Shown one piece after another: positions 1-27,600 of a DNA stretch of 28,247 nucleotides (position 1 is its first letter; every line of letters begins with the position of its first letter). This stretch comes from a virus (Duplodnaviria > Caudoviricetes): the IMG/VR virus record IMGVR_UViG_3300027693_000016, positions 1 through 28,247 of that record. The stretch is one strand, 5' to 3'. Both the position numbers and the translations under genes were made by a program. The notes beneath the pieces were generated by a model. That model saw only the letters and a program-made list of their open reading frames with translations, was not told where the DNA came from and did not search any database.

Positions 1-273
1 CATGCTAATCATCTGATGACAGACCTTACAAGGCTTTGCCACCAATGGCCTACCGTCCTTACCATACCGTGTTACTAGTATGCGGTGTGCCTTCTTCCAA
101 TCACACTTAAGTAGGGCTGCTACCTCTGCGTGTAGGAATACCTTGTGAGGCTCACCCACCTCTGCCGCTACACGGGCTTGTAGTGGGTGTGTCTTCACAT
201 AGCTGTTCTGACCAGAGGAAAGCAATCGCCCCCTCTTGTCATATACGAATGCACTTATGTGCTGCTGGCACAT
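1..273 (-). CDS. Zn-dependent cytidine/dCMP deaminase-like protein (3' end runs off the window)
   Basis: Not in the ORF track. Manual translation from ATG at 273: MCQQHISAFVYDKRGRLLSSGQNSYVKTHPLQARVAAEVGEPHKVFLHAEVAALLKCDWKKAHRILVTRYGKDGRPLVAKPCKVCHQMISM. It has the deaminase signature HAE (124-132) and PCxxC (19-33). Confidence 0.85.
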   Translation of the reverse strand, partial: MCQQHISAFVYDKRGRLLSSGQNSYVKTHPLQARVAAEVGEPHKVFLHAEVAALLKCDWKKAHRILVTRYGKDGRPLVAKPCKVCHQMISM

Positions 274-479
274 ATCGTGATTAAATTAAACACAAATGTT
301 TCTCCATTATCAAGGTCTTGTCCTTGTCTATATTGCCCACTGTACACCCTATCATGTAGTAGGGATATACAACGCATCTCGCCTTCAGAAATAGAGTCAG
401 GTACAGTACGTACATATAATCTATATACACCGTTTGCACCAACAACTACATCACCGTGTTTTAGTTTGTGCTTGTCCAT
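255..479 (-). CDS. hypothetical phage protein (74 aa)
   Basis: Its ATG overlaps the stop of the AAA+ gene (TAATG coupling). Same strand as the early block. Confidence 0.65.
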   Translation of the reverse strand: MDKHKLKHGDVVVGANGVYRLYVRTVPDSISEGEMRCISLLHDRVYSGQYRQGQDLDNGETFVFNLITICASST

Positions 480-1534
480 TAGCCAAACACCTTGGTATAC
501 AACTCCGACACACTCTTACTGTCGTCAGGTGTAAGCTTCTCAAGGTAGCTAACTTGCAATGCATACTGCACATCATAACGCTGCTGCTTACGTGCCCAAT
601 TGATAAGGGTACGTGGGCTAATAGTTAGACCAACCTTACCCTGCTCATACGCTGTACGTACAAGGGATGCTAACCTCACCATGTCAGTAGCAACCTTCTT
701 GTCAACACTACTCTTACTAGTAATGATGTCAACCTCATGCTTCTGAGATAGATAGCCAAGACGGATAGTGTTGGTGAATCGGTCAATGGTAGCTGTGTTC
801 TGTACACCTACACCAGAGAATGCACCTGTCACATCACCTTGCCCAACAGTATTACCAGCAAAGACCAGACGAAAATCAGCATCAGGATGAACAGTTCTCT
901 CGTCACTTGTCCCCGGCTTTTCCTTAAGATATAGATAACCACCATCTTCCAACAAGTTCTGCATACCCATAGCAATCTCTGCTGGCATCAACTCCCACTC
1001 ATCAACCAAACACACAGCACCATACTTAGCTGCCTCAGTGATAGCACCATCCTCCCACACAGTTGCACCACCACGTACAACTAGTGTGCCAAACAATGCT
1101 GCACTCTCTACATCACCACTCATGTTGATGCGAATGAATGGGCGGTTAAGCTTAGCACACACATACTTGACAAGGGATGATTTACCACTACCAGTAGGGC
1201 CAGTGATTAGGGTCTTATCACCATCCATCATACCCGCTACTAGTAATGCTGCCTCATCTTTCTGCAACACATAGTCGGGGTCTACGCTAGGGATGAGTCG
1301 GGCGATCTCAGGGTCTGCTGGATTGTCCAGCACACGTACACCAAAGTCACCAAACTTAGGCTTGTAGCCAAACACATCACTAAACCACACATGCCCATAC
1401 TCCAGCATTGTCGGTGCTTTAGGGGGTACAGCCGGTGCATCAGGTGCTGCTGTAGTTGGTGCTTTAGGTGCTTTACCCAAGTGTGCTGCAATTGCCTTGG
1501 CTACACGATCATTCAGTTCTGTTGTTGTCGCCAT
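479..1534 (-). CDS. cobS: CobS/MoxR-like AAA+ ATPase
   Basis: Walker A GPTGSGKS, Walker B LVDE, AGNT sensor, DRF arginine finger and SPRTL. The start is reassigned to the ATG at 1534 (MATTTEL), which has an AGGAG RBS. Adjacent to a VWA gene. Confidence 0.9.
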   Translation of the reverse strand: MATTTELNDRVAKAIAAHLGKAPKAPTTAAPDAPAVPPKAPTMLEYGHVWFSDVFGYKPKFGDFGVRVLDNPADPEIARLIPSVDPDYVLQKDEAALLVAGMMDGDKTLITGPTGSGKSSLVKYVCAKLNRPFIRINMSGDVESAALFGTLVVRGGATVWEDGAITEAAKYGAVCLVDEWELMPAEIAMGMQNLLEDGGYLYLKEKPGTSDERTVHPDADFRLVFAGNTVGQGDVTGAFSGVGVQNTATIDRFTNTIRLGYLSQKHEVDIITSKSSVDKKVATDMVRLASLVRTAYEQGKVGLTISPRTLINWARKQQRYDVQYALQVSYLEKLTPDDSKSVSELYTKVFG

Positions 1535-1535
1535 G

Positions 1536-3236
1536 TTAAATACTCCTGTCAATGATTGATAAAATTGTCGGGGACAGTTGGTTCAAGTCGTTAACGACTA
1601 CGTTCTTTTTATAAAAACGAGTAACGTTACTATCGCAAATACCAATACCATACACATCTACCCCCATCTTTTCTGCATGTTCCACAGTGCGTAGTGTGTA
1701 ACCTGTCACATCACCTGCATGTTCCCTACCTGCTGGACTACCATCAGACAATACTAGTAACACCTTGCGATGTTCCTTGCGTTGCCCTAGTCGTGTTGTT
1801 GCATAGGCAATGGCATCACCATCACTGTTCTGCCATAGCCCACCACTAACCTTCTCAAACCTCTTCACAAGGTCAGCTTGTGGTACTTTCTCACCATACT
1901 CACTAAACAACCAGATGATTGGGTCTTCATCAGCCACTGTATTAGTGAATCCATAGATTGAATAGGCAATGTTAATAGGTTTCAAAGCCTCTGCCAATGC
2001 ACCAGCACCAGCACATGCCATGTCAAACTTCTTACCAGACATTGACCCACTGCAATCTACTAACAGACACACAGCAGTATCGGTTGTATCGCTTACAACA
2101 CGCTGACGAAACACCCTCTCTGCAACCCTATCATTACCACTAACAAGGCGGTGTAGTGAGCCGTTGTGTAACTTACCCTTCTTCTTGCCGTACTCATACT
2201 TGTCACGGCTACGTGTCTGCAACTTAAGGCGTAGCTTGTTAGCCATAGGTCGTGCGTTATTAGTAATGTAGTTATTAATGCTTGTCTTATCTAAGTAACC
2301 ACTACTCAACAAACTTTCTACAACGTGCGGTGCTTTCTTGTCGAAGCCACAAATGACATACTCATCAGGTCGTGGGATAGAGTATGCACCCCTACCTACA
2401 GGCTCAGGGATGAGGTGAATACCCGTGCGGCTAGGCTTATGCTCATGCCCAATGGATTTCATAAGCTTAGACACAGTGATGAGGCGGTCTACTGCATCTG
2501 TCAACCCATCCTTGTCTTCACCACCACCCTTACCACTAGATGCTGTACCCTTGCTATCATCTTCTTCCTTCATATCCTTGTAGTCTTCAGGGTCTTGGTC
2601 ATACAAGTCTTTAAGTATACGCTCGGATAGATTCATAACTTGCTCTGCTGTGCCCTCCTCACGTATACGCAGCATCTCTTCTGAATACTTGTCTAGTTTA
2701 GCTAGTCGTGCTTTACCATCTGCATCAATGTTGGTGTGCATCTGGTGCATAGCGTCATCTGCTGAATGAATCCAGTCACGCAGTGATGCATCCCATACAA
2801 ACAAGGGTAGCGTCAACAGTTGTTGTTCTTGCAACTCTTTGTCTTTATCTTTAGCTCGCTCACTAATGTCATTGGCATACAGATACCAGAATGCATTACT
2901 AATATTGGCATCACCCTTGTACTCACCATCATTTAGATAGTCAATGCGGTGATCTTCTAACAGGTTGTTAATGAGGGCTAACAACCCTCCCGGCTTAACC
3001 TTGTTAAGGTAGGCAAAGTCACTGTGTACTACGTGGCTTGTCTCATGCTTAACAAAGTAACGCATACGTATCAACCACTCTACACTAGTGTTACTAGTAA
3101 TGGCTGGCAACCACATCTGTTTGCCATTGGTGCGTGGTGTTGAGTCAGCATCATCCCACTGCACAGATACACCACTATTCTTAGCACATGCTGAAACATA
3201 TGTCTCAAATTGTTGAACATCTAGGTATGTTGTCAT
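1536..3236 (-). CDS. cobT: CobT-like protein with N-terminal HExxH region and C-terminal von Willebrand A domain
   Basis: MIDAS motif DCSGS, LSDG and GIGI at the C-terminus. HETSH and NLLEDHRID at the N-terminus, with an acidic/Gly-rich linker. GGAGG RBS. Confidence 0.88.
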   Translation of the reverse strand: MTTYLDVQQFETYVSACAKNSGVSVQWDDADSTPRTNGKQMWLPAITSNTSVEWLIRMRYFVKHETSHVVHSDFAYLNKVKPGGLLALINNLLEDHRIDYLNDGEYKGDANISNAFWYLYANDISERAKDKDKELQEQQLLTLPLFVWDASLRDWIHSADDAMHQMHTNIDADGKARLAKLDKYSEEMLRIREEGTAEQVMNLSERILKDLYDQDPEDYKDMKEEDDSKGTASSGKGGGEDKDGLTDAVDRLITVSKLMKSIGHEHKPSRTGIHLIPEPVGRGAYSIPRPDEYVICGFDKKAPHVVESLLSSGYLDKTSINNYITNNARPMANKLRLKLQTRSRDKYEYGKKKGKLHNGSLHRLVSGNDRVAERVFRQRVVSDTTDTAVCLLVDCSGSMSGKKFDMACAGAGALAEALKPINIAYSIYGFTNTVADEDPIIWLFSEYGEKVPQADLVKRFEKVSGGLWQNSDGDAIAYATTRLGQRKEHRKVLLVLSDGSPAGREHAGDVTGYTLRTVEHAEKMGVDVYGIGICDSNVTRFYKKNVVVNDLNQLSPTILSIIDRSI

Positions 3237-3340
3237 AACGGTGCATCCTCCACAGGTATGTTGATTGGTTCAGGTTTAACAGGTTCCCCGTTACGTACAG
3301 GGAACGGCCATGTTACACGTTTTACAGGGATGTGATTCAT
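3233..3340 (-). CDS. small Pro-rich protein (35 aa) with WPFP motif
   Basis: Manual translation MNHIPVKRVTWPFPVRNGEPVKPEPINIPVEDAPL. It fills the gap exactly, with a TAATG overlap upstream and an ATGA overlap with the cobT-like start. Confidence 0.7.
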   Translation of the reverse strand: MNHIPVKRVTWPFPVRNGEPVKPEPINIPVEDAPL

Positions 3341-3537
3341 TAGTTCACCTTGGTTACATCTGGGTATGCATACGTTACATATATGCGATTAAACTCTGAG
3401 TCTAGCCAGTTTTCTACGCTGCTATCCATCTTAAAGTTGTTAGCTAACAACCTATTACGCAATGCTTTTTCAAACTCACGTAACTCATCAATGGTTCGCA
3501 ATTCGACAAGGCGTGGTGATGACAGACCTTCGCTCAT
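3340..3537 (-). CDS. hypothetical phage protein (65 aa)
   Basis: ATGA overlap with the upstream gene and TAATG overlap with the downstream gene. Confidence 0.7.
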   Translation of the reverse strand: MSEGLSSPRLVELRTIDELREFEKALRNRLLANNFKMDSSVENWLDSEFNRIYVTYAYPDVTKVN

Positions 3538-3791
3538 TTAGTGTACCTCTTAAGCATACGTATTGGTGAATCACCGTTACTAGTAACAGTGTTGAATGTA
3601 AACTTAACACCGATGTTTTCTAGGGCATCAACGAATAGTGCAGCATCACAGTCTTCTTCAAGGTATACCTTATCCCCTGCCTGATAACTGTAGGCGCTGA
3701 TAGCGTCATCAATGTGTAGCATTGCCAGTTCTTCACGGCCTACCTCAAGCCAGCCATGTCCCGGATCAGTGTGAAAATTGTATGTTGTCAT
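3534..3791 (-). CDS. hypothetical phage early protein (DPGHGWL ... YLEEDCD motif)
   Basis: ORF-track protein, with the start moved to the ATG at 3791 (MTTYNF). The DPGHGWL/YLEEDCD motifs are ones I recall from phage early proteins. Confidence 0.8.
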   Translation of the reverse strand: MTTYNFHTDPGHGWLEVGREELAMLHIDDAISAYSYQAGDKVYLEEDCDAALFVDALENIGVKFTFNTVTSNGDSPIRMLKRYTK

Positions 3792-3796
3792 GTTAT

Positions 3797-3883
3797 TTAC
3801 TTCCAAAGAATGTCAAAGAAACCTGCAATTGATACTAGTAACACAATTGATACTAGTAATGAATCGACTATGTCCCGCATCAT
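3797..3883 (-). CDS. small hydrophobic (single TM) peptide, 28 aa
   Basis: Manual translation MMRDIVDSLLVSIVLLVSIAGFFDILWK. ATGA overlap with the upstream gene; the stop lies 5 nt before the next ATG. Confidence 0.55.
   Translation of the reverse strand: MMRDIVDSLLVSIVLLVSIAGFFDILWK
3826..3859. repeat. tandem direct repeat CAATTGATACTAGTAA x2 (18-bp period)
   Basis: Copies at 3826-3841 and 3844-3859, each containing the TACTAGTA core. Confidence 0.9.
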
Positions 3884-4143
3884 ACCTTTGCCCCTAATGC
3901 ACGCAGTCGTGATTTTGTGGTGCGTGTAGGCCATTGGGTTAGTGTTGCCATGTTCACATCAAAACGATTCAAGGAATACACGAATGTTCCAATATGATTT
4001 CCGTGTAAGTATACCCGAGCATACTCAATACATGCCCTCTCAGGTGTACTAAGTTCAGGCTGATAGATAACCTCAGTGTTAGCCTCTCTCCAACTCTTAC
4101 GTTGACCGATAGCTAGACACATTGCTTTTTCAATTTTACGCAT
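3880..4143 (-). CDS. hypothetical phage early protein (87 aa)
   Basis: GGAG RBS. The YLHGNHI and TTKSRL motifs resemble small phage proteins. Confidence 0.8.
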   Translation of the reverse strand: MRKIEKAMCLAIGQRKSWREANTEVIYQPELSTPERACIEYARVYLHGNHIGTFVYSLNRFDVNMATLTQWPTRTTKSRLRALGAKV

Positions 4144-4148
4144 GTTGA

Positions 4149-4328: not shown

Positions 4329-4358
4329 GTTAATCCTTGAATGTTACTAGTAACAAGC

Positions 4359-4376
4359 CAGGGGATTTCTCCCCTG
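4359..4376 (-). terminator. GC-rich hairpin with GAAA tetraloop (weak terminator or stabilising hairpin)
   Basis: CAGGGGA-GAAA-TCCCCTG just after the stop of the 169-aa gene. It is followed only by GCTTGTT, a poor U-tract. Confidence 0.45.
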
Positions 4377-4385
4377 ACTCCCACA

Positions 4386-4895
4386 TTATTGTGCTTGCTT
4401 AGCTTGATACACTGCATCAGCTAACAAGGCAAGCTTAGACCACAACTCTTGCAGCTCTTCTTGATTGAATGCTTCCCGTGTCTCGCTATCATATTTCTTT
4501 TGGGCTGCATCGATGTATGCAACCATACGTTCGAAGTCACTCTTACTCTCTTGCAACTCACTCTTACCCTTAGGCATTGGATAGCCTTCTTCAGTCTCTA
4601 TGCATCCACTATCATCTCGCTTCCACACATCTACGTTATTAGTAACAGCCTTACCGATAACAGATTTTGCTGAACGCAGACTATTCTTTTCTTCCTTGGA
4701 CAATTCTTTCATACCTTCCAAGGTTTCTACCAGATTCTTGTGTGCCTTGTCTAACTCTTCCACATTAGAGGGCTGCACTGGATAGCATGTTGACCGGACA
4801 TAATTAGCCCACACTCCAGCGCCAGCCTCACGGCTCATATCCTTACCGGCTTTTGCTTCTTGCAGTGCAACACGCAGATTATTTTCGTATGACAT
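4386..4895 (-). CDS. hypothetical protein (169 aa), first gene of the early block
   Basis: AAAGGA RBS and ATG start; helical, charged sequence. Confidence 0.85.
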   Translation of the reverse strand: MSYENNLRVALQEAKAGKDMSREAGAGVWANYVRSTCYPVQPSNVEELDKAHKNLVETLEGMKELSKEEKNSLRSAKSVIGKAVTNNVDVWKRDDSGCIETEEGYPMPKGKSELQESKSDFERMVAYIDAAQKKYDSETREAFNQEELQELWSKLALLADAVYQAKQAQ

Positions 4896-4924: not shown

Positions 4925-4977
4925 TACTAGGCTTGATTACAATGCATTACTAGTAATACACTGTAGAAAACCTAGTA
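4925..4977 (-). promoter_or_regulatory. long imperfect RNA hairpin in the 5' leader of the first early gene (possible RNase III site)
   Basis: On the - strand, TACTAGG...TACAGTGTATTAC-TA-GTAATGCATTGTA...CCTAGTA. Two apparent mismatches are G-U pairs only on the transcribed strand. Confidence 0.55.
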
Positions 4978-5002
4978 GTTTTCTTGGTAGCATATCCCGT
5001 TG

Positions 5003-5120
5003 TCAGCGGTTCTACCTGATACCTTCCAGTATCTTGCGCCTAAGGTACTCGTATGGACATTGCGTTGCCATAGTCAAAGCTTACCTATACGTTTTATTAG
5101 GGGTACGTATTCCCTGCTGA
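5003..5120 (-). ncRNA. candidate structured RNA/leader A (~118 nt)
   Basis: Starts 6 nt after TATAAT. 5' TCAGC pairs with 3' GCTGA. Internal stems ATACGT/ACGTAT, AGGTA/TACCT, TATGG/CCATA and GATAC/GTATC. Confidence 0.35.
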
Positions 5121-5126
5121 GCCTTC

Positions 5127-5158
5127 ATTATACACACTAACCTTACATGAAACTTACA
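5127..5158 (-). promoter_or_regulatory. early promoter 1: TGTAAG-N5-TGTAAG plus extended -10 TGTGTATAAT
   Basis: - strand TGTAAGTTTCATGTAAGGTTAGTGTGTATAAT. Perfect -10 at 5127-5132; direct repeats at 5142-5147 and 5153-5158. Confidence 0.65.
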
Positions 5159-5161
5159 GGA

Positions 5162-5314
5162 TGTTAGGTGATACGGTCAAGCTTGTTAGCTTCCCCTAAT
5201 TAGATGCATTAGGCGCCCTGCACATTGTGCCTCTTGCCAGATACGTTTAAAGCTCATTGCCCGTCCGTATCCTTACCACATCTAACCATGCCGATTTGTC
5301 TCAATCACCTAACA
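5162..5314 (-). ncRNA. candidate structured small RNA B (~153 nt)
   Basis: Perfect 11-bp terminal stem TGTTAGGTGAT/ATCACCTAACA whose 5' arm starts 7 nt after the -10 of promoter 2. Internal stems TTAGATGT/GCATCTAA, GATACG/CGTATC, GCAC/GTGC and AAGCT/AGCTT. Confidence 0.5.
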
Positions 5315-5321
5315 GGCCTCT

Positions 5322-5354
5322 AATGTAACTGCCAATCCTTACACCAACCTTACA
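5322..5354 (-). promoter_or_regulatory. early promoter 2: TGTAAG-N5-TGTAAG plus -10 TACATT
   Basis: - strand TGTAAGGTTGGTGTAAGGATTGGCAGTTACATT. Repeats at 5338-5343 and 5349-5354; same architecture as promoter 1. Confidence 0.55.
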
Positions 5355-5454
5355 ACCAAAATGAATACTTAATACGTACCCTACCTAGGGCTGAAAACGC
5401 CCCTATATATAGGCACTGAGTAGTGTAGTACGTAGCATACTATGTATGCCTCAA

Positions 5455-5760
5455 CTATTATCTATTCAATATAGGTATAATATTATATAATATAATAGAT
5501 AATAATTGATAACATTATATAAATACTTGATATATATAGATAATGTATAGTATAATGACTATTAATATACTATAATATGGGGGTATATATAATAACTGTA
5601 TTGTTAATACTTAATATACTAACTATATAAGCTACTACTTATATATATATATATTACTAGTATATATATAATATATTAACTATATATATATAACTATAAT
5701 AATATAATATATATAATACTATAGTAATAATATATTATATGCTATTAATACTTTATTATT
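5455..5760. other. extremely AT-rich low-complexity region (candidate origin or terminus-associated region)
   Basis: About 300 bp dominated by A/T with (TA)n runs and no ORF, lying between the divergent gene blocks. Confidence 0.6.
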
Positions 5761-6046
5761 CCTTCTCAATTCTGTGGCAACTCGACTAAGGGGGGTAGGG
5801 GGGTTGGTTTTATATTGCACCACCACTTAAAATTATCTCATAAAATTATTGCTATCAGATAATTAGTTGTAATTATTTTGAATAAAAGATTCCCACCCAC
5901 CCACCACTATCGTGTTTAAGGAGTCGTAGACGACATTTAAGCCCTATTAAAGCTCTTTTTAGGGGATAGGTAAGGGGGTAGTGGCCTGACGACCGCAAAA
6001 CGCGCTGTAGCTCGTTTAAAACGGTTTATACAAACACCTCAATTAA

Positions 6047-6082
6047 GTGACATTTTTATTTAAACACTATCTAAGCATACCA
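6047..6082 (+). promoter_or_regulatory. candidate phage late promoter GTGACATTTTT-N12-TCTAAG-N2-TACCA (copy 1)
   Basis: The same motif with identical spacing recurs at 17704-17739. This copy is upstream of the first structural gene. Confidence 0.6.
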
Positions 6083-6139
6083 TTAACTAACAAATACTCG
6101 TTTATGGGTACACTACTAATAATTTTATTAGGACTATTA

Positions 6140-8413
6140 ATGGCAAAACTTACATTAAATGCAATAGGGAGTCGATACGGATCAATTGATGCGCTGAATG
6201 ACAATTCAGACCTCGTTGAAACGGCATTTGAAAACACCCTAAGTCGGGATGGCACAGGCCCGAACAACATGGAGTCCGACTTGGACATGGATAGCAACGA
6301 CATCATCAACGTTGCAAACCTTTCTGTAGCTAGTTTACGTGTCAATGGTCAGCCAGTGTCACCCGGTTCCATTAACTACACTGGTCAAGTTAAAGAAACC
6401 CAGACAGCTACAAGTGGGCAGACAGTGTTTAACCTTTCAACTGTTAGCTACGCCCCTCTTACTAATAATTTGAGTGTTTATGTAGATGGTGTATATCAAA
6501 ATCCCACTACGTATACAGAAAACAACAGCACACGCATTACATTTGATGCCGGTGTACACATTGGTGCAGTGGTTGATTTTGTTGTTCTCAGCTTAACAGA
6601 CTTGCCCGGAACTACAGATGCTAGTAATGTTACCTACACTCCCGCAGGGAGTGGTGCAGTTACAACAACAGTTGAAACCAAACTCCGCGAAACCGTTAGC
6701 GTCAAAGACTTTGGCGCTGTGGGTAACGGGACAGCGGATGACACGGCAGCGATTCAGAACGCAATCAACGCAGCAGCATCTCAAAACAAAAGCCTGTCCT
6801 TTAACGGCCTAATGTGCAAAATTACATCCACTGTGACAATCCCGTCAAACTTGAGCATTGTTGAAACAGCGAATGGCGGCGTGATTCATGGCGCAGGTGC
6901 TTTGTTCACAATGTTTAGCGGAACCAGTGTATCCAATGTTCACATCGAGGGCATGGTATTCGACGGGAACGGTGCCAACGTAACCGCATCGGGCAACATC
7001 TACGCTCGTTCCCCTGTAATCTCGACTGGTGGAACGGTTTCAAACATTGCAGTGTTGGGCTGTACTGTGCATGATTGCAAAGGTCGCGGCATTGCAATTG
7101 CTGGCAATTCCTCTAGCGATAGTAAAAATGTCAGAGTGGAAAATAACCGCATCTACGACATGAGTTCAACGTGCATCCAATGCACCGACATGAGCGATGT
7201 GTCCATCATTGGCAACAACCTTGAAAATTGTGTTGGGGCAGGCATCGGGATCACGGCGTCAGCAAAGATTTGTAGCAACACCATTGTTTCTGAAAACATT
7301 GTAAAAACCGTTGCAAACGACATAGCGAACATCGCGTCTGGTCTTGGCATCACTTACTTTGCTATTTCAGGCTACAGAGTTGAAAACAACGTAGTCTCAA
7401 ATAACGTCGTGAGTGGTTGTGAATCTATGGCGTACTCACTGACCGCTGGCAGCGGCGGTGTCGATGTTCCTGTAAACATGGTTGTCACAGGTAACGTGGC
7501 TGAGAACACTACCGCTGTCGGGAACGGGTCTGGTTATTCCTACGAAACGACTGGATCAAACATCAGCGTTGTGGGAAATATCTCACGAAATGCAGCAAAG
7601 GTTCATATTGCTATAGGCGGCGGCAGTCGTTTGTCGATCATGAACAACCATTTGGAGTCCATAAACTCAGACACGTTGTTAAGCGGCATCAGTGTTGTTG
7701 ATGCGGGGCTTCCATCAAGCTCCACAATGGACACAATCTCCATCACGGGGAATGTGATCGTCAACAAAACCGGCGTAGCGGCAACAACACGGTGTGAGGC
7801 TATTTACATCGTCAACATCACCGGCTCGACAATTCACAAGAACATCTCGATTCAGAACAACATCATTACTGGCGACTGGCGCATTGGTGTTTACAAGGCG
7901 TGCAGCTCGTCTTCAAATGGGGATATTTCTGGAAATAAGATTACTCTTTCCGATGTTACAAACTTGGGCACTGGTATTCAGGCGTACGGCAACACGCTGA
8001 CTATTCAAGACAATGTAATTTCACCAAAAAGTACAGGCATCGGGCTTAATTTTCTTTCTGCTGGAAGCAGTTCAATTGTTGGCATTCTTAACAATTCAAT
8101 TTACATTGCCAACATTGCAGGCACGGGCATCAATTTTGCTGTCTCGGGTGTATCTACAATCGCCAACGTGCGGATTGGCGGGAACATTGTTGCCACATCA
8201 AGTTTGCCAGTGACAGGCCGATTGATCGTCAACACATTGATCGATTTCAACAACAACTCTTGGAACTATGGCGGCGCTGTTGCCCCGTCAACCGGCGATT
8301 GGACACAAGGCAGTACAGTGTTCAATCGTTTGCCAGCCGTAGGCTCCCCTAAAGCATGGACATGCACCGTATCGGGAACTCCCGGAACGTGGGTAAGTCA
8401 AGGTAATTTGTAA
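6140..8413 (+). CDS. tailspike/tail fibre 1: N-terminal virion anchor plus pectate-lyase-like beta-helix
   Basis: Start reassigned to the ATG at 6140 (MAKLTL, AGGA RBS). Anchor-like LSRDGTGPNNMESDLDMDSNDIIN, then VSVKDFGAVGNGTADDTAAIQ, many I/V-x-G/N-N repeats, and a C-terminal WTCTVSGTPGTW module. Confidence 0.88.
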   Translation: MAKLTLNAIGSRYGSIDALNDNSDLVETAFENTLSRDGTGPNNMESDLDMDSNDIINVANLSVASLRVNGQPVSPGSINYTGQVKETQTATSGQTVFNLSTVSYAPLTNNLSVYVDGVYQNPTTYTENNSTRITFDAGVHIGAVVDFVVLSLTDLPGTTDASNVTYTPAGSGAVTTTVETKLRETVSVKDFGAVGNGTADDTAAIQNAINAAASQNKSLSFNGLMCKITSTVTIPSNLSIVETANGGVIHGAGALFTMFSGTSVSNVHIEGMVFDGNGANVTASGNIYARSPVISTGGTVSNIAVLGCTVHDCKGRGIAIAGNSSSDSKNVRVENNRIYDMSSTCIQCTDMSDVSIIGNNLENCVGAGIGITASAKICSNTIVSENIVKTVANDIANIASGLGITYFAISGYRVENNVVSNNVVSGCESMAYSLTAGSGGVDVPVNMVVTGNVAENTTAVGNGSGYSYETTGSNISVVGNISRNAAKVHIAIGGGSRLSIMNNHLESINSDTLLSGISVVDAGLPSSSTMDTISITGNVIVNKTGVAATTRCEAIYIVNITGSTIHKNISIQNNIITGDWRIGVYKACSSSSNGDISGNKITLSDVTNLGTGIQAYGNTLTIQDNVISPKSTGIGLNFLSAGSSSIVGILNNSIYIANIAGTGINFAVSGVSTIANVRIGGNIVATSSLPVTGRLIVNTLIDFNNNSWNYGGAVAPSTGDWTQGSTVFNRLPAVGSPKAWTCTVSGTPGTWVSQGNL

Positions 8414-8466
8414 ATACAATATAATTAAAATATGCTAATTAATAACAGCATAAACTGGAGAAGTAG

Positions 8467-9693
8467 ATGATTACGCCATCGTTTGCGCTGACTGCAACTG
8501 AAAGGGTGCTTCCAAGACTTGCGTTGGATTTCACCACAGGTAGCCTTGATCCTCGGGTTACGTTTACCCGCGCAAGCACCGCCACGTTTTACAACGCTTC
8601 TGGGGTGCTTTCGACTGCCGCCATTAACGCACCAAGGTTTGACTACAACCCTGTGACGTTGGCTCCGATGGGTTTGCTCATTGAGGAACAACGGACAAAC
8701 TTGGTTTTGCGATCGGAACAGTTTGAAAACGCTTCTTGGGTAAGTTTGGTAACAACTGTCACTGCGAATGCAACAACCGCCCCTGACGGTACATTGACTG
8801 GTGATATATTAGTGCCTAACATGGTATCGACAGGCCATGCCACCTATCAAGACATTATCGTTTCTTCAGGTGTTGCGTATGCACACACGGTCTACGCAAA
8901 AGCTGCTGGATATTCGTGGCTTGCTATGCGGCCAAGTTCTGGGACAGCCCCTTTTGCTTATTTTAATTTAACCGCAGGAACCATCGGTACTGTTGGTGCT
9001 GGTTTAACAGCCTCCATCACTCCTGTTGGAAACGGCTGGTATCGTTGCACGGTTATTTTTACGATGGGGTCAGCAACAAACCGATTCCATCTTTACCCGG
9101 CACAGCAAAATGGCGATATCGTTTTTGCTGGTGATGGCACAAGTGGTATCTATGTTTGGGGCGCTCAACTCGAAGCCGGAGCATTTGCCACCAGCTACAT
9201 CCCCACAACCACCACAGCCCTGACCCGCAATGCTGATGTTGCCTCAATGACGGGGACGAACTTCAGTAGTTGGTATAACCAGACGCAAGGCACTTTGCTT
9301 TCCGATGTCATGCTTACTCAAGTGGGTACGACATTTGCGTACACTGTCAGCGACAACACTGTGAATAATCAAATATATCACCGGGAACTTGTGTCTGGTG
9401 GTGATTGTGCGGTAGTCACAAGCAACTTCACGCAGGCGTACCTCACAAAAGCCTACACACCGGCAGTTGGTTCAATATACCAAGCAGCCATAGGCTATGC
9501 TGCAAATAACATTGGGTTCACCGTTAACGCTGCTTCAGTGGTCACCGATACTTCAGCAACCATTCCAACACTGGATCGCCTCTATTTGGGGGCTTCTTTC
9601 AATGGCGCTGCTCAAAGATCAATATATCTTCGTTCATTCTATTATTGGCCTCAACGGTTGACCAATGCAGAACTGCAAGCATTTACATCATAA
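8467..9693 (+). CDS. virion spike/fibre protein (head-spike-fibre-like, carbohydrate-binding/LamG-like folds)
   Basis: FTRASTAT...PRFDYNP...GLLIEEQRTNL and WGAQLEAGAFATSYIPTT motifs, typical of phage fibre/spike proteins. GGAG RBS. Confidence 0.75.
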   Translation: MITPSFALTATERVLPRLALDFTTGSLDPRVTFTRASTATFYNASGVLSTAAINAPRFDYNPVTLAPMGLLIEEQRTNLVLRSEQFENASWVSLVTTVTANATTAPDGTLTGDILVPNMVSTGHATYQDIIVSSGVAYAHTVYAKAAGYSWLAMRPSSGTAPFAYFNLTAGTIGTVGAGLTASITPVGNGWYRCTVIFTMGSATNRFHLYPAQQNGDIVFAGDGTSGIYVWGAQLEAGAFATSYIPTTTTALTRNADVASMTGTNFSSWYNQTQGTLLSDVMLTQVGTTFAYTVSDNTVNNQIYHRELVSGGDCAVVTSNFTQAYLTKAYTPAVGSIYQAAIGYAANNIGFTVNAASVVTDTSATIPTLDRLYLGASFNGAAQRSIYLRSFYYWPQRLTNAELQAFTS

Positions 9694-9702
9694 GGACACA
9701 AA

Positions 9703-11985: not shown

Positions 11986-12354
11986 ATGTTACTAGAAACA
12001 ATTGTAGGTGCGTTAGTTCCTATTGGTGTAGAAGGTATTAAACAAGCCATTGGTAAATGGACAGGTGGTGTTAAAGCAGTAACTGTAGACGACCAGATTA
12101 AACTAGATGAAGCAGAAGTGCGGCGGCTAGAAGCTGTTGCAAAACTGGACACTCCCATTGGTCAACCTAGTCAGTGGGTTGTGGACTTACGAGCTTCAGC
12201 ACGTTACTTAGGTTCGTTACTAGTAATAGGTGTTGGTGTATCTACACTATACATTCCAGTGGACATAACTATACAATCTTTAGCATTAGAAGCAGCTAAC
12301 ATTGCTTTTGGCTTTTTATTCGGAAGTCGAATAATTGCGGGATTTAAACGATGA
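11986..12354 (+). CDS. putative holin (3-TM type)
   Basis: Three hydrophobic segments, a GFLFGSR motif and a basic C-terminus. ATGA overlap with the endolysin. Confidence 0.7.
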   Translation: MLLETIVGALVPIGVEGIKQAIGKWTGGVKAVTVDDQIKLDEAEVRRLEAVAKLDTPIGQPSQWVVDLRASARYLGSLLVIGVGVSTLYIPVDITIQSLALEAANIAFGFLFGSRIIAGFKR

Positions 12355-12895: not shown

Positions 12896-13158
12896 AACTA
12901 GCTTACATAGTTTGGGAAGATGCTTCAGAACTTGACGTTACAGCTTGGGCTGTACACGAAGAAGAATTTAGTTATGTACCAGTGTTATGTAAGCAAGTAG
13001 GTTGGGTTATTTATGATGGCCCTGAAGGTATTATTCTTACGCAAGCAGTTACTAGTAATGGTGAAGTGGCTAGGCGTAATCAAATACCTAAACACATGAT
13101 TAGGAGTATAGAATGGTTGACCGAACCAAGTTTCTTGACGGAAGTGGTAAGCGAGTAA
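12892..13158 (+). CDS. hypothetical phage protein (88 aa)
   Basis: Coupled to the upstream ORF; YIVWEDA motif. Confidence 0.75.
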
Positions 13159-13592: not shown

Positions 13593-13861
13593 TGCCGTTT
13601 ATGACAAATGGAAAACGTGATTATAAAAAACAGTATGAAAAGTACGATGGCAAAGATAGTGTAAAGAAAGACCGAGCTAAACGCAATGGTGCTCGCCGTC
13701 AAATGGAAGCTGAAGGCCGTGTATCTAAAGGAGATGGCAAAGATGTTGACCATAAAAAACCACTTAGTAAAGGTGGTGGTAATGGCAAGTCTAATTTACG
13801 TGTTACTAGTAAAAGTTCCAACCGTAGCTTTGCACGTAAAAAGAATGGAGCAATGAAATAA
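13592..13861 (+). CDS. HNH endonuclease-like protein
   Basis: DVDHKKPLSKGG...SNLRVTSKSSNRS motif; located next to the terminase genes. Confidence 0.85.
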   Translation: MPFMTNGKRDYKKQYEKYDGKDSVKKDRAKRNGARRQMEAEGRVSKGDGKDVDHKKPLSKGGGNGKSNLRVTSKSSNRSFARKKNGAMK

Positions 13862-19475: not shown

Positions 19476-19482
19476 ACTAACT

Positions 19483-21614: not shown

Positions 21615-23906
21615 ATGGCAGCACAAGCCTCAGTTCAGGATGCGTTTACGTTTGTAGGTGGTCTAGTCACTGAAGGCGGCTATTTTATTACGCCTGAAAA
21701 TAGTTACAAAGAAGGTGTAAACGTAATCCCACAAGTTGACGGTGTTATTGAACGCCGTAATGGATTAGATTATGAAGAGGGGTACAATCTATACCCTGCT
21801 GCTATTAGTAGTAGTAGTAAAGATTTATGGGCCTTTACAACAGGTACGTGGTCTACTGTAGCTGGTAGTGGCAATCGGGATTTTATTGTAGCTCAGACAG
21901 GGCCGTATTTAAACTTTTATAATGCTGCTTCAGGCAGCGTCAGTGCATCACGCAATACAGTATTTAGTATTGACTTAACTAGCTACAAAGTTCCCGGTAA
22001 TCCCAACACAGTTGGTACAGGAGTTTGTAGCTTTGCGCCTACTTATGGTAAACTCATTATTACCAGTGCAGATACCCTACCATTACTAGTAAGCTACAAA
22101 CCTGTTGATGGTAATGAAAACGTGTGGGGTACGTTTACAGTTAAACCTTTAAACTTAGAAATTAGAGACTTTAAAGGTATTCCTTTAATTGGTACACTAG
22201 ATTTAGGCCCGACACTAGGCACTGCTACTTTTTCAATTCCTATTGATACAGAATATACGGCTGCTCAATGGGAATCTTTTAACGTAGACATTGCTGATGT
22301 TAAATACAACTTATACAACCAAGGTTGGACAGACTCAAAAATTGATGCTTACAGGGTTGCTAACGGTGGTAGTCCCGGCGATCCAGTACTCGGTAAATAC
22401 CCTTCTAACACTAAGAGTTGGATTTACGGTAAAGATAGCAACGATGACTTTGACAGTAATGTACTAAACAAACAAGACTTTGGTAACTCCCCTGCCCCTA
22501 AAGGGCATTTTATTATTGATCCCTTTTATCCTGACGATGACGATAAAAGAATTGTATATCGCCCTAAAGTGTGTGCATTCTTTGCAGGGAGGACATGGTA
22601 TGCGGGTATGCCTACATCTGACCTACTAGGTACAGTATTCTTTAGTCAAGTATTAGACTCCATTGATAAAGCAGGTAATTGTTACCAAACCAATGACCCT
22701 ACATCTGAAGTCATTAGTGACTTAGAAGATGATGATGGGGGCACTATTGAAATTCCTGAAGCCGGTGAAATTGTATCGTTACAACCATTAGGCCGAGGCA
22801 TTATGGTGTTTGCAACTAACGGTGTATGGTTTATTTCAGGAATTGACCAAGGGTTTAAGGCATCTAACTACGCAGTTGATCGTGTGTCTGCTGTAGGTTG
22901 TGTTAGTGGTAAGAGTGTTGTACCTGTAGAAGACACTGTGCTCTATTGGAGCACCAGCGGTATTTACGTTGTTAGTGCAACTAACTCCGTAGAGTATACA
23001 GCCACCAACATTAGTGAAAAAAACATTAAGACCTTTTATCAAGACATTCCAATTTTGGGTAAACTATATGCTGAAGGATCGTATAATGCTACAGATAAAA
23101 CTATTTATTGGTTATATTCAAACTCAATTAATACATCTACTAGTAGTGGTCGATTCAATAAAGACACTGTTCTTGCCTTTGATGCCCGTTTAAATAGTTG
23201 GTATTGGTTTTCTATTGACACCACTACTGGTGTTATTCCTGTATCCATTGAAGTTACAAAGGAAACAACAACCATTAGTAACGAATATAATGTTATTGCT
23301 GGTGTAGATAGTGTGCTAGCCAGCACTGATACAGTTGTTGCTAACGTAGCTAACATATCTGGTACACGTAAGTCTTACAAAATACTAGCTTTACATCCAG
23401 TTACTAGTAACAACTATTCTGTAACCTTTGCTGACTTTGACAACACACGAGACAGTAGCACTAAGTTTAAAGACTGGTATTCGTTTAATAACGTAGGTAG
23501 TGAGCAACAAGCATACTTTATTACAGGGTATAACATGGGTGGTAATGGCCCTGCTAGGGCTATGTCTGGTCAATACCTTACTGTGTTTATGAAACGCACT
23601 GAAACATCTTTTGACAGCAATACTAACCCACTAAATCAAAGTAGCTGTAAAATGCAAAGTCGTTGGGACTTTACTGACAACACTTATCCCGGTAAGTGGG
23701 CTGCTGAAGTAGAAGTATATAGGCAACTACGACCATACTTTACTGATCCCGGCAGCACATTTGATGATGGCTACCCATTAGTTATCTCTAAGAATAAACT
23801 ACGTGGACGAGGTAATGCAGTGCAGTTTAAGTTTACCTCACAAGCTGGTAAATACATGAAGATTGTAGGATGGACAGGAACATTTGTAGGAAACACCAAT
23901 GTTTAA
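21615..23906 (+). CDS. tail tubular protein B (nozzle, T7 gp12/P22 gp10-like)
   Basis: TFVGGLVTE N-terminus, IERRNG, AFFAGRTWYAG and KLRGRG...FKF C-terminus; 763-aa beta-rich protein. Confidence 0.82.
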   Translation: MAAQASVQDAFTFVGGLVTEGGYFITPENSYKEGVNVIPQVDGVIERRNGLDYEEGYNLYPAAISSSSKDLWAFTTGTWSTVAGSGNRDFIVAQTGPYLNFYNAASGSVSASRNTVFSIDLTSYKVPGNPNTVGTGVCSFAPTYGKLIITSADTLPLLVSYKPVDGNENVWGTFTVKPLNLEIRDFKGIPLIGTLDLGPTLGTATFSIPIDTEYTAAQWESFNVDIADVKYNLYNQGWTDSKIDAYRVANGGSPGDPVLGKYPSNTKSWIYGKDSNDDFDSNVLNKQDFGNSPAPKGHFIIDPFYPDDDDKRIVYRPKVCAFFAGRTWYAGMPTSDLLGTVFFSQVLDSIDKAGNCYQTNDPTSEVISDLEDDDGGTIEIPEAGEIVSLQPLGRGIMVFATNGVWFISGIDQGFKASNYAVDRVSAVGCVSGKSVVPVEDTVLYWSTSGIYVVSATNSVEYTATNISEKNIKTFYQDIPILGKLYAEGSYNATDKTIYWLYSNSINTSTSSGRFNKDTVLAFDARLNSWYWFSIDTTTGVIPVSIEVTKETTTISNEYNVIAGVDSVLASTDTVVANVANISGTRKSYKILALHPVTSNNYSVTFADFDNTRDSSTKFKDWYSFNNVGSEQQAYFITGYNMGGNGPARAMSGQYLTVFMKRTETSFDSNTNPLNQSSCKMQSRWDFTDNTYPGKWAAEVEVYRQLRPYFTDPGSTFDDGYPLVISKNKLRGRGNAVQFKFTSQAGKYMKIVGWTGTFVGNTNV

Positions 23907-24180
23907 AATTGTTGATAACAGTGCTTGCACACTTTACTTAGGTTTTACAGACGGCATTGCTTATGTACATGGTGAGTTACGTACATTTAATAGGTCTTCT
24001 TATAAAGATACATCTGACAAATGGGCTTCTACACTAGAGGCTTTGCGAGAAGAGGGTTACGATAAAGTGTTTACACAAATTAAAAAAGAATATGACAATG
24101 TAAAAACATTTCAAAGGCGACTTGGTTTTAAAGAATATATTGAAACTGATACCGATTTAATCATGGTAAAGGAACTATAA
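23899..24180 (+). CDS. small GNAT-like protein (T7 gp13-like position)
   Basis: C-terminal NVKTFQRRLGF resembles the GNAT N..A..F...LGF motif; located between the nozzle and the internal proteins. Confidence 0.55.
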   Translation: MFKIVDNSACTLYLGFTDGIAYVHGELRTFNRSSYKDTSDKWASTLEALREEGYDKVFTQIKKEYDNVKTFQRRLGFKEYIETDTDLIMVKEL

Positions 24181-24614
24181 TGTGTGATCCAGTTACAGCA
24201 ACACTATTGTTTGTTGGTGCAGCTTCAGGCGCATCGGCACTCGAACAGCGTAAGGCAGGTAAAGCTTCTGAACAACAATATCGTGCAGAACAACGTAAAG
24301 CTGAAATTCAAAACGTGCGTAGTGTTCGACAACAAATTCGTGAAGCACGTATGGCTCAGGCTTCTATGACTAACATAGCTGCACAAACAGGTGGTATGGG
24401 TGGTAGTGGATTAGCTGGAGGTACATCTAGTGTAGGTGCGCAGCTAGCTGGTAACTTAAGCTATATGTCTGACATTGCAGAACAAAATACAGCCATTACT
24501 AATGCCGCTATAGCAGGTGTTCGTGCCTCTACTAATGCAACTATATTTGGTACGATTGGTAGTGTAGCTAGTACATACGGTAGTATTAAGACACCTACTA
24601 AACCTATTGAATAA
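24180..24614 (+). CDS. internal virion (ejection) protein, T7 gp14-like
   Basis: MCDPVTA N-terminus, a hydrophobic Ala/Gly segment and a Gln/Ala-rich helical body. Confidence 0.78.
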   Translation: MCDPVTATLLFVGAASGASALEQRKAGKASEQQYRAEQRKAEIQNVRSVRQQIREARMAQASMTNIAAQTGGMGGSGLAGGTSSVGAQLAGNLSYMSDIAEQNTAITNAAIAGVRASTNATIFGTIGSVASTYGSIKTPTKPIE

Positions 24615-24622
24615 GGTTCATA

Positions 24623-27600
24623 ATGATGTTATATGAAGATGACGGTGCAGAACTCCCTGAGCAAAGCTTATACACTGCTGAAGACACTGTAATTGCCCCT
24701 GACACTAGTGTTGGTAACTATTCAGTAGTTAAAGGTATTGTAGCGGCTGCTACAGGTAACACAGACATCCCAGATAAAGTTAACTTCGACCAGTTTGTAG
24801 ACAGCAACTGGCGTACCACTGTTCCTGAACAGAATGACATTGACCGTGACATTGCGGTTAAAGCTGCATCTGAAGGTAATGTAAATATTGTTCAACAAAC
24901 ACTAGACAGTATTGCTACACGCAACAAAATGTATAGTGAACTTAGTATTAATAACGCTAATGATGTACGAGCTAAACTAAAAGAACTTACAACACAAGCT
25001 GTAGAGACAACTGCTGTACGTAACCCTGCTGTACTGTTTAACAACACTCCTGCTGAGATTAACGAGTCTACAGCACGTATGTCTAAACGAATTAGTGCTG
25101 CTGCAACTTTAGATAAGGCCATTCAAGATGGTAGTAAGTTTTCAACAATTGCGTTAGGTTTTGCTGGTGAGTTTTTACCTACAACTGCTATTTTACAAGG
25201 AGTGGCAATTGATAGTGTTTCTGTAAAGTATGGTGTTCCTTCGGACTCTATTGGTACTTTTACAGGTAGATCACAAACTAAAAGTTATTTACAAGCTGCA
25301 TTCAACGCGCAACCTGAAGAAACTAAAGGTGAATGGTTAAGCGGCTTGTATAACGATTTAAAGGATAGCTGGCTTATCACTGATTGGCAAGCTGCATTAC
25401 TAATACAAGAAGTAGCGACAGGTGAAGAACAAACATGGGGTGGTCTATCTGATTGGTTAGATAGAATTGGTGCTGCGGGTGCTGCATTAACAGGATTAGG
25501 TGCGGTTGTTAAATCAGTTAAGTTAGCTAAGAGTGCTAATGCTTTAAGTAGTGTAGAGCGATCACTAGCTGCTGCTGGTGGCAAGAATGCCATTATGTCT
25601 GCTGAAGCTGCTAAGATTGCTTCAGAGGTAGCTAATAAACAACGTTTACAAGCTGTTGGTGTAGTTGCAGGTGAACTCACTGGTATCAGTACAGCCATTG
25701 ACTTAGGCAAACTAGTTAGTGTTAACGCTGCTAAGGTGTTACCTGATTCAATTACAACTGCTGCTGATGACCTACAGAAAACTATTCGTGCACCTATTGA
25801 AAAACTAATTGCCGAACTACAAGATGTGGTTGCGGCTAAAGGTGTTCGTGCTTCAGAAGCTGCTGCTGAACTCACAGACTTACAGCGCATCTATTCTAAA
25901 ACAAACAATCCTAACGTACACTCAGTAGACCCATTTACTTTATCTGAAAATGGTTTAGTTATTACGGGTAAAGTGTTCTATAAACCAGACACTGCAACTA
26001 GCTTCTTAACAAAAGAAGCTGCTGAATCCTATATTAAAGCTGCTGATCCAACAGGGTCTATTGGCATGAAGGTTGTACCTGACACTACTAACACAGGGTT
26101 CTTAGTAGAAGAGAGTGTTAAGAAAGAGTTACAACTACGTAAGACAGCCTTAGAAGCACTGGTGTTAGAAGAGTTAAACAAATCAAAACCTAAACGGGGT
26201 AAGAAGGCTCCTGCTGTAGAGACTCCACCACTGGAACGTGCCCCTGCACCGAAAGCTTTAACTGACAGTAAACCCCGCTATAAAGCATCTATGTTGTCTT
26301 TTGAAGATGATGTAGATAAAGCTGCCTACCAAATTGGGAGCAAAACTGCTACTAGTAAGAGTGATAAAGAAATTAAAGCGTGGTTACAAAGCACAACAGG
26401 TTGGGATGATGCCACCATTGCTGGTCATGCACAAACTGTTCGTGACTACATTAAAGCTAACGAAGACATGGTAGATGATGTAGGCAACATTATGGTTGCT
26501 AGTCAAGTACCAACAAGTCGCCCTGCATCTACATTCCAAGCTAGCTATAGCCAAGATTTTGCTAACCTACAAGCTGCCCCCGGTACTACCACTGTGGGCA
26601 ACATCACTATGTCTTCTGGTGTTAAGAAGGCATTCGTTGTAGAGTTTGTTAGCAAGCTAGGTAAAGCACTAGGCATGGAGAATCGTAAACTTGTAGTTAT
26701 GGACTACGAGGATATGGTTAAAAGTAAAGACCCAACAGTACGTTCCATTGTTACTGATATGAAGCAAAAGCACGGTAGTGCTGGCGCTGTACATTACGAC
26801 TACGGTAGTGGTCAGTCTTTCATTGTAATGCGTAGAGGGCCAGCTACTAAGCCTCTATCACTACGTCAATACATGGAAAACTTTGCCCATGAGTATGGGC
26901 ACGCCTTTGAAGCAGAGTTTGCTACAAAGTATTTTGGTATTATTAATAGCAGTTTCAATAAGTGGTTACGTGCTAAGGGCATTGCCTTTAAAGGTGATGG
27001 CATTAATAAATCCGTTTTGGACGCATTTCCACCTGAAGCTCTATTAGAATATCGTTCTATTACCAATGCAGAAGACATTGCTGTCAACTGGATTGACAAG
27101 TGGGCTGGTGGTGACTACGGTAAATACAAAGCATACGAGTCTGAGATTCATAAGTGGGCATCTAGCTACAGTGAATTCTTTGCTGAGAACTTTGCTAAAT
27201 GGGCCTTTAGTGATGAGATACCTACCACGATATTAGGACAGACATTTAAGCGCCTTGTAGACGGTTTTAAGCTCATTGCTAGCGATGTTATGGATAGGCT
27301 AGCTAAGCTAGGTATCGTAGCTGATGTGGGTAAGGTGGACAAAAACATTGCTGCCATGCTTAACACACACGTTAAACAACTTCAAGCTGAAGCTGTTGAG
27401 GTGAGAGCTAACATGACAATGATTGCTTCTGAAAGCAAAAAGATTAAACCAACACTCTCCTCTCTACAAAAAGAGTTGGATGAAGTGATGGACGAACTAA
27501 ATGCCATTGAAGATGCTGAAAAGGGATTGAAGACAGGGTGGCTAGTTGAGCAACCTATCAACCGTACACTAGACTATTCCATCGTTGGTAAATACTCTGA

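Follow-up and report, generated by a model that had tools for sequence, protein, structure and literature searches.

A selected palindrome arrayed through the genomes of uncultured podophages, and a first early protein as its candidate reader

Introduction

Why does a phage genome carry one palindrome again and again, mostly inside its genes, and what might read it? The question arises from a stretch of viral DNA of 28,247 nucleotides (IMG/VR record IMGVR_UViG_3300027693_000016; hereafter the window), in which a first-pass annotation had noted an over-represented palindrome as a possible phage tag. Dispersed dyads are already known from Cluster O and L5 mycobacteriophages. According to the available part of PMC4351075, the apparently lytic Cluster O phages carry more than 30 symmetric copies of a 17-bp dyad, TGTTCGGNNNCCGAACA, denser at one end, many of them intragenic and mostly off promoters, which was predicted to be a dimer site. 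What such repeats do in non-temperate phages is still a puzzle, and those of Cluster O have neither a function nor a reader assigned to them. The motif of the window was not found described in the open literature searched.

The window is a fragment of a Zobellviridae-like podophage. Its TerL scores 56% to MEP401/402 and 50%–52% to cobaviruses, and its two-arm convergent layout has the same gene order as ICP2. Comparison of the layout with ICBM1 and ICP2 suggests that the contig is permuted, and that the physical genome-end junction lies in the non-coding gap between the diverging arms (4957..6100).

Results

The window contains ten perfect copies of the 10-mer TTACTAGTAA, starting at 714, 3091, 3577, 4344, 4947, 12217, 13049, 13803, 22083 and 23401, and 18 copies of its 8-bp core TACTAGTA. 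All cores but the one at 23137, which has two mismatches, differ from the perfect 10-mer by at most one (17/18); 11 of the 18 are located in the first 5.7 kb and none in the tailspike/fibre block. The coordinates, counts and distribution given in the first-pass annotation were thus all reproduced. Four further one-mismatch 10-mers lie beyond the cores (2257, 4636, 6459 and 11989), giving 21 10-mers within one mismatch, against a mean of 2.40 and a maximum of 6 in 100 dinucleotide shuffles of the window. An order-3 Markov model predicts 1.10 cores and 0.10 perfect 10-mers for the 18 and 10 observed. Upon synonymous-codon shuffling, the 13 in-gene cores compare with 1.61 (0 of 300 shuffles as high) and the eight in-gene 10-mers with 0.81. 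The excess survives all three nulls, which led us to reject a codon or composition artefact and supports the earlier proposal of selection on the DNA rather than on the protein. Moreover, the encoded proteins leave room for the 10-mer at 11 places, of which 8 are occupied by it, and 12 control palindromic 8-mers have 0–2 copies each. The argument from a rarity of CTAG fails for this genome, in which CTAG occurs 123 times against 127.7 expected. Many 6-bp palindromes are avoided in the window, for example CTGCAG (0 vs 9.6 expected). Including its flanks, the motif widens to a 12–14-bp dyad, (T/C)(G/A)TTACTAGTAA(C/T)(A/G).

On the early arm, a site TTACTAGTAT (72..81) lies within a dCMP-deaminase-like ORF. 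The gene of a CobS-like (MoxR-type) AAA+ ATPase (479..1534, minus strand) contains a perfect site (714..723) and CTACTAGTAA (1237..1246), retained by 44/45 and 41/45 orthologues, respectively. The adjacent gene of a CobT-like VWA protein (1536..3236, minus strand) contains ATACTAGTAA in a codon-493 slot (1751..1760), a variant TTATTAGTAA (2257..2266) that is found in 35 of 41 orthologues and keeps up a 506–523-bp spacing, and a perfect site (3091..3100). Both genes co-occur with the motif, and their products may be partners of its reader. A perfect site in a small early ORF (3577..3586) is followed by a pair of intergenic sites starting at 3832 and 3850, 18 bp apart (3832..3859), and by a perfect intergenic site (4344..4353) directly downstream of the first early ORF (4386..4895, minus strand). 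This ORF encodes a 169-residue protein of an RSAKS..A...GK[ST] family, the candidate reader; it contains a variant TTATTAGTAA (4636..4645), and a perfect site (4947..4956) lies about 50 bp upstream of it. Another TTACTAGTAT (5654..5663) lies in an AT-rich tract close to the putative genome end. On the late arm, perfect sites are found at 12217..12226, at 13049..13058, in an HNH-like gene (13803..13812; 26 of 49 orthologues), at codon 157 of a tail tubular gene (22083..22092), where others use codon 149 instead, and at codon 596 of a tail tubular gene (23401..23410). The core with two flank mismatches, CTACTAGTAG, is at 23137..23146, and a second CTACTAGTAA (26349..26358) lies in a large internal-virion-like gene.

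The palindrome is carried by a large group of uncultured podophages. Relatives of the window hold 24–40 cores per genome, so the excess predicted for related phages is present. Sister lineages carry variants of a single 14-mer, TGTT[A/C]YTAR[T/G]AACA, namely type A TTACTAGTAA, type B TGTTCYTARGAACA and, in genome G007, TTAYYRRTAA; the variants differ between lineages of unlike GC content. The motif matrix is a 14-bp dyad with strongly fixed central bases and graded tolerance at many positions. Covariation between the half-sites is absent, the lowest p value among 35 position tests being 0.03, and pairing equals independence at all positions. Since the arms show no compensatory covariation, a hairpin or cruciform (an N4-type promoter or an RNA stem) is ruled out, and the symmetric dyad with independent half-sites lends support to the suggested dimeric-protein site. 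Six genomes, the A2 group, combine a different capsid/portal set with the same motif family, which rules out the virion module as the driver. Given that the motif goes with the early/replication arm, whichever of two different virion modules is present, the packaging role once considered for it is disfavored. ICP2, CW02, ICBM1, VP41s3, KpnP_VR7901, T5S1 and 1.253.O have 0–1 family 14-mers and no protein of the candidate-reader family. In VP41s3, GGTC-N6-GACC occurs 20 times, clusters at multiples of 9 bp and likely reflects Gly-Pro collagen codons.

The spacing of the sites was analyzed in relative genomes, the window being a fragment, and in most of them it is more regular than chance would give. 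Of 17 genomes, 13 have under-dispersed gaps within the first 17.5 kb (gap CV of 0.41 vs 0.95 in G002, 0.50 in G005, 0.52 in G013 and 0.51 in G018); by CV the even spacing is not significant in G001, G019, G021 and G022. Neighboring sites are about 300 bp apart at the early end and several kb apart at the opposite one, and in all 15 genomes gaps tend to be longer the farther they lie from the early end (p<0.05 in 12). In type A, the proportion of permissive places that are filled falls on through the late arm, which is transcribed in the opposite direction (15/21, 17/39, 16/46, 4/15 and 6/24); the A2 group has no such saturation gradient, with 57%–100% filled in all bins. Altogether 473 of 558 sites are intragenic, evenly distributed along genes. 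Sites in early genes are conserved at synonymous positions among orthologues, and late-arm sites show no excess of such conservation (0.67–0.74 vs 0.62–0.63). Lost sites are replaced nearby: in CobT, a site at codon 479 or 510 occurs in 4 of 7 sequences without the codon-493 site and in 0 of 25 with it, and a site at codon 140 or 156 in 7 of 13 without the codon-111 site and in 0 of 19 with it. Protein sequences have also adapted to the motif, as seen from the counts of permissive 10-mer places (22 each in G002 and G008 vs 2–4 in G005, G013 and G024).

The 169-residue first early protein is the best candidate reader, and the sequence comparisons suggest that it probably binds the palindrome. 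Its family is present in 15/15 motif-bearing and 0/8 motif-free genomes, a co-occurrence that supplies a candidate for the phage protein postulated earlier. Among 92 families screened, only this family and the CobT-like and CobS-like families reach 15/15 vs 0/8, followed by an SSB-like gene (15/15 vs 1/8); the profile used was built partly from the same genomes. The candidate protein fetched 77 loci, all of which contain the family 14-mer, with 780 copies in 1.05 Mb and no locus below 2.9 per 10 kb. The 80 MEP-like loci, 0.88 Mb in all, contain 12. Across 162 sequences, R74 (93%), S75 (98%), K77 (99%), S78 (92%) and K111 (100%) are near-invariant; these basic or hydroxyl residues are located at helix starts in confident predicted models. 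The subtypes of protein and motif change in step, and G007, the sole genome whose protein has Ala instead of Arg at position 74, has the most degenerate motif. Co-occurrence and covariation are both confounded with phylogeny, since the candidate protein and the motif go back to a single origin: all 16 protein-bearing loci inspected have CobT-like genes belonging to one and the same early arm.

The family, which has no name, comprises 602 clusters. The protein has no match in PHROGs, Pfam or PDB sequences, and its BFVD matches are exclusively uncharacterized phage proteins. Foldseek against PDB gave a best E value of 0.29, and the best VIA hits (Z of 5.8 and 7.6) were unrelated helical bundles, with the ParB-family HTH not among the matches listed. 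These missing matches do not show that the fold is new. In a search for cultured carriers, tblastn with three family members gave no match in 50,697 phage records; Gordonia phage Phendrix, a weak BFVD lead, has no profile match and no strong dyad in 120 of its 121 kb. A basic ORF of 61–81 residues at the early-arm end and an ECF-like sigma factor were rejected as readers, because BLAST clustering found both missing from the six A2 genomes and each scored below 10/15 in the profile screen.

Discussion

The sites are enriched, conserved across the clade and evenly spaced along a gradient, their half-sites are independent, and they co-occur with a protein family. These observations enable us to propose a putative model, to which we assign a probability of roughly 45%: the palindrome is a selected, even and graded lattice, bound by a dimer of the first early protein that coats the entering DNA. 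In terminally redundant podoviruses, the early end enters the cell first, and by analogy it would do so here. The first early protein would then be made, and its dimer would dock on the palindromes along the genome. Its function would be physical rather than promoter-specific, with dimers every few hundred bases that organize the incoming DNA or shield it from nucleases or sensors of the host. Close packing of the sites at the early end might offset the low protein level directly after entry, and the site immediately upstream of the reader's own gene would likely add autoregulation. Loading or stripping of the candidate reader may fall to the neighboring CobT/CobS-like VWA/AAA+ pair. A bolder version, which we hold to be doubtful, is an entry-coupled genome ruler, in which the new-fold protein of the first-entering gene would fill a lattice that widens in order of entry and, together with the adjacent VWA protein and MoxR-type AAA+ ATPase, would ratchet in or shield the arriving DNA.

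The proposed model is reminiscent of KorB/OB, Noc/NBS and RacA/ram, dimeric proteins on dispersed palindromes with a DNA-organizing role; the Pfam, PDB profile and fold searches gave no ParB-, HTH- or MerR-type match for the candidate reader. With the Cluster O dyads, the motif shares a large number of symmetric copies that run throughout the genome, more densely toward one end and mostly off promoters; the outer letters of those dyads, TGTTC..GAACA, match type B. However, the 7-3-7 dyad TGTTCGGNNNCCGAACA has a longer spacer than the 14-bp dyad with its fixed center, 14 of its 34 copies are intergenic against 15% here, and the available part of that account (PMC4351075) reports neither even spacing nor a reader. 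Corndog has no homologue of the 169-residue family.

The main rival is that the same protein acts as a genome-wide, stoperator-like repressor or transcription roadblock that damps its own gene along with the early arm, or that it keeps a carrier state, which we consider unlikely. In 8 of the 10 leaders listed, a site lies 25–75 bp upstream of the candidate reader's start codon, and in G002, G004 and G009 a site lies 22–23 bp upstream of a sigma-70-like promoter; these conserved sites fit plain regulation equally well, and the early arm is the densest in sites. A promoter scan gave 9 matches vs 11.8 expected. One phage protein likewise acts in this manner at about 24 sites spread over the genome in the Cluster A phages L5/D29 (PMC5712189, available part), but those stoperators are asymmetric, oriented with transcription and mostly intergenic, in a temperate phage, whereas the sites here are perfect dyads, 85% intragenic and uniform within genes. 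Furthermore, the gradient does not stop at the junction but continues on the late arm, and no integrase was noticed on the gene maps. The repressor c of phiC31 binds conserved inverted repeats. We recovered 13–15 dyad copies in phiC31, where the gene is labelled 'repressor of lytic genes', and the candidate reader shows a weak language-model similarity (Atlas, 0.79–0.80) to the repressor c family. phiC31 is temperate, c has about 680 residues and a different motif, the candidate-reader family profile has no match in phiC31, and against PF25746 1 of 146 family members matches (E of 0.0096). The available part of PMC11302927 holds nothing on phiC31 CIRs.

It is improbable that the site is read by a protein of the host (a nucleoid organizer, self-recognition factor or regulator), with the phage mimicking a host tag and the variants mirroring hosts. 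Lineages of differing GC content do carry differing variants, and the outer letters of type B, TGTTC-N4-GAACA, equal what we take to be the Verrucomicrobia LexA box; yet the center is strongly fixed, unlike a LexA spacer, and the motif follows a phage gene family. No chromosomal excess was found in 21 Aquiluna-genus genomes, the sole cellular genomes examined, which may not be the host. In one of them (G033), 7 of 9 motif matches are on two contigs, the phage contig and a motif-dense one. The search for a host gave one MAG match, to Aquiluna, which was rejected as probably mis-binned.

Still less probable is that another early-arm product, from the CobT/CobS-like pair or the SSB-like gene, reads the site and the 169-residue gene merely travels along. 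Their association with the motif is equal or nearly so, but CobT/CobS-like domains are VWA and AAA+ rather than DNA-reading, and ICP2 has CobT and CobS with neither the 169-residue protein nor a lattice, though its CobS is just 26% identical. That the sites mark programmed nicks or modified bases in virion DNA, as first suggested, is very improbable: the nick motifs of the Pseudomonas phages tf and Rembedalsseter (TACTRTGMC / WACTRTGAC; available part of PMC11780129) share TACT and are likewise dispersed, clade-wide, intragenic and uneven along the genome, but they are non-palindromic, on one strand and in about 9–13 copies against 30–47 matrix-level copies here, a central nick in a perfect palindrome would presumably cleave both strands, the graded tolerance suits a binding matrix, and no nuclease or methyltransferase family tracked the motif in the 92-family screen.

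Even spacing with nearby replacement and the gradient are two quantitative features that narrow the possible mechanisms. To the puzzle of dispersed dyads, the motif adds natural variants and a candidate reader that is small and soluble, its family having neither a name nor a recognized fold. Tests of this protein and the site need no culture of the phage, as work in vitro or in a laboratory strain would do. A new fold that binds DNA sequence-specifically, with a specificity switch that can be read, would be of general interest as well. A genome ruler, if true, would explain dispersed phage dyads and give the CobS/CobT-like genes of phages a job on DNA.

A recount of the palindrome in the window returned every count and coordinate listed in the first-pass annotation, and 21 sites lie within one mismatch of TTACTAGTAA, against 2.40 expected from 100 dinucleotide shuffles. 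The proposal that selection acts on the DNA rather than on the protein was borne out by synonymous-codon shuffling within the 34 window genes: 13 cores were observed vs 1.61 expected, none of 300 shuffles reached 13, and 12 control palindromes showed no comparable behaviour. Moreover, the 10-mer is present at 8 of the 11 places in the window where the protein sequence permits it. The palindrome is thus a real feature of this DNA. The tailspike block is indeed free of cores, as the three consecutive tailspike/fibre genes (6140-11283) hold none; their sole one-mismatch copy lies at 6459, in the N-terminal part of the first gene. The argument from the rarity of CTAG fell, since this tetramer occurs at expectation in the window (123 vs 127.7). 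Palindromes of 6 bp are strongly avoided across the whole window (CTGCAG, 0 vs 9.6 expected; CAGCTG, 0 vs 7.3; TGATCA, 0 vs 6.0), as are GATC, CATG and CGCG, a pattern typical of restriction avoidance.

The window covers only part (28 kb) of a Zobellviridae-like podophage genome; the terminase matches those of MEP401/402 at 56% and of cobaviruses at 50-52%. It carries CobT/CobS-like, tailspike, portal, capsid and tail tube genes in two arms that point away from each other on either side of a non-coding stretch at about 4960-6100. Given the layouts of ICP2 and ICBM1, the latter with a terminal repeat at 1-172, we infer a permuted contig, with the physical ends of the genome inside this stretch. 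A long TA-rich tract at 5440-5760, near the putative genome end, is found in many relatives. The CobT-like protein (1536-3236, minus strand) has an N-terminal HETSH (HExxH) motif, an acidic linker and a VWA domain, and is a possible metallopeptidase. A relative of this phage (G033, on L168 and L517) was binned in an Aquiluna MAG, which may reflect mis-binning or hint at the host.

Among relatives, 57 loci were retrieved with the CobS-like protein, and 55 of them have TACTAGTA as one of their two most strongly enriched 8-bp palindromes; it is sparser in the 80 loci retrieved with terminase. Seven of ten whole records hold 24-40 cores, and G007 holds 11; G005 and G010 have one each and carry TCTTAAGA in its place (21 copies vs 1.9 expected, and 12 vs 1.0). 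The G007 form is TTAYYRRTAA, with 28 copies. Motif matrices from 35 genomes and fragments, with genes called by an ORF script and a threshold of 11 bits (background, 0-8 matches per motif-free genome), revealed one family with three lineage variants: type A (yrTTACTAGTAAyr; 326 sites, 8 genomes), type A2 (TGTTMYTARKAACA; 201 sites, 6 genomes) and type B (TGTTCYTARGAACA; 170 sites, 7 genomes). The half-sites vary independently at every position, which rules out a hairpin; the motif fits double-stranded DNA read by a dimer. The matrix scan found the family absent from ten MEP-like genomes. Two MEP-like fragments without early ends, G011 (L304) and G012 (L308), bear a different palindrome, (C)GTTTAAAC(G/A) (18 copies vs an expected 2.4, and 9 vs 0.9). 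The A2 genomes (G018-G023) are mosaic, sharing the early/replication arm and motif family with the others but not their module for capsid, portal and tail.

Conservation at synonymous positions in orthologues held for sites in the early genes CobS and CobT, and not for late-arm sites, which showed no excess. Of 45 CobS orthologues, 41 retain one of that gene's two sites and 44 the other; codon identity there is 0.95-1.0, vs 0.64 elsewhere, and at CobT sites 0.82-0.97, vs 0.59. Type A genomes offer 22 places permissive for the 10-mer vs 2-4 in others, so the encoded proteins have accommodated the motif. Neighbouring alternative site positions are mutually exclusive.

Most sites (473 of 558) are intragenic, in genomes of which a share of about 0.91 is coding, and they are distributed flatly along gene length. 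Spacing over the first 17.5 kb was compared with random placement in 17 relatives, which like all genomes in the spacing and gradient statistics are not independent samples: 13 have more regular gaps than expected, evenness by CV not being seen in G001, G019, G021 and G022. In G002, gaps of 251, 312, 315 and 294 bp give way to about 500 bp, 700-800 bp and then 1-2 kb and more, and counts per 5 kb run 12, 7, 7, 5, 6, 3, 2 and 2. This widening trend is positive in all 15 genomes (p<0.05 in 12). In type A the gradient persists within the late arm after correction for protein constraint, whereas the A2 group shows no comparable fall in saturation.

In the early leader, a -10 element resembling TGTATAAT is preceded, at a distance of about 9 bp, by the directly repeated TGTAAG-N5-TGTAAG, at 5142-5158 and 5338-5354 (minus strand); G006 has five copies of this repeat (10369-10730), and the leaders of G002, G004, G008 and G009 have two each. 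Because its layout resembles a PhoB/OmpR-type box, the early promoters may be activated by a host response regulator. Type A genomes and some of type B encode a phage ECF-like sigma factor, with Pfam domains Sigma70_r2 and r4_2, close to where the early arm ends (L144:4443-4910 in G002; L153:10017-10457 in G005).

The candidate reader, a protein of 169 aa encoded by the first early ORF (4386-4895, minus strand), is assigned to its family by the shared pattern RSAKSV..A...GK[ST], together with a profile match that is weak (hhalign 69%, E 4e-5). This family occurs in A, A2 and B genomes; clustering at 50% identity divides it into 602 clusters, and its R, S, K, S and GK[ST] residues hardly vary. 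Confident predicted models (pLDDT 91 and 96) show four helices, a small hairpin and a C-terminal helical pair, and fold searches with them gave no outstanding match. Among 92 families screened, only the candidate reader, CobT-like and CobS-like families are present in 15/15 motif-bearing and 0/8 motif-free genomes; an SSB-like gene scores 15/15 and 1/8. ICP2 has CobT/CobS and lacks both the candidate reader and the lattice of sites. The family 14-mer occurs in all 77 loci fetched by the candidate reader, at a density of at least 2.9 per 10 kb; that in MEP-like loci is 0.14. Motif and protein subtypes track each other, and in G007 Ala replaces R74 and the motif is without the outer G and central specificity. 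Against the candidate, all of this comes from one lineage, and the G007 case is a single one. Sites at 4947, 4636 and 4344 surround the gene, and one lies upstream of it in 8 of 10 leaders shown. G013 encodes two paralogues (41876-42406 and 39621-40058), one heading the early arm and the other directly upstream of the CobT-like gene. Judged from these sequence comparisons, the candidate reader probably binds the palindrome.

A physical job on DNA suits the lattice better than promoter control, because it is symmetric, intragenic and even, its density tracks distance from one end, and the gradient spans two oppositely transcribed arms. In our putative model (probability about 0.45), the first gene product would coat the entering phage genome, most likely for protection or organisation; the protective role is presumptive, as is the order in which the genome ends would enter. 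That the same protein acts as a stoperator-like repressor is unlikely. Orientation, the defining feature of L5 stoperators (PMC5712189), is absent from the lattice. The candidate reader shows slight similarity to phiC31 repressor c, which a follow-up profile comparison did not confirm. A host protein reading the palindrome is less plausible, and another phage protein doing so slightly less again. Most doubtful is a nick or modification site, as the nick motifs in PMC11780129 are asymmetric and on one strand, unlike the palindrome.

Coating of the entering genome remains our preferred, if tentative, reading. Closest in behaviour is the Cluster O dyad (PMC4351075), itself unexplained and different in sequence. 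Neither the palindrome nor the candidate reader was found in the literature covered, which excluded supplements and subscription journals. Dispersed dyads are a known but unexplained kind of element, of which this palindrome is a new variant, and it comes with a new, testable candidate reader.
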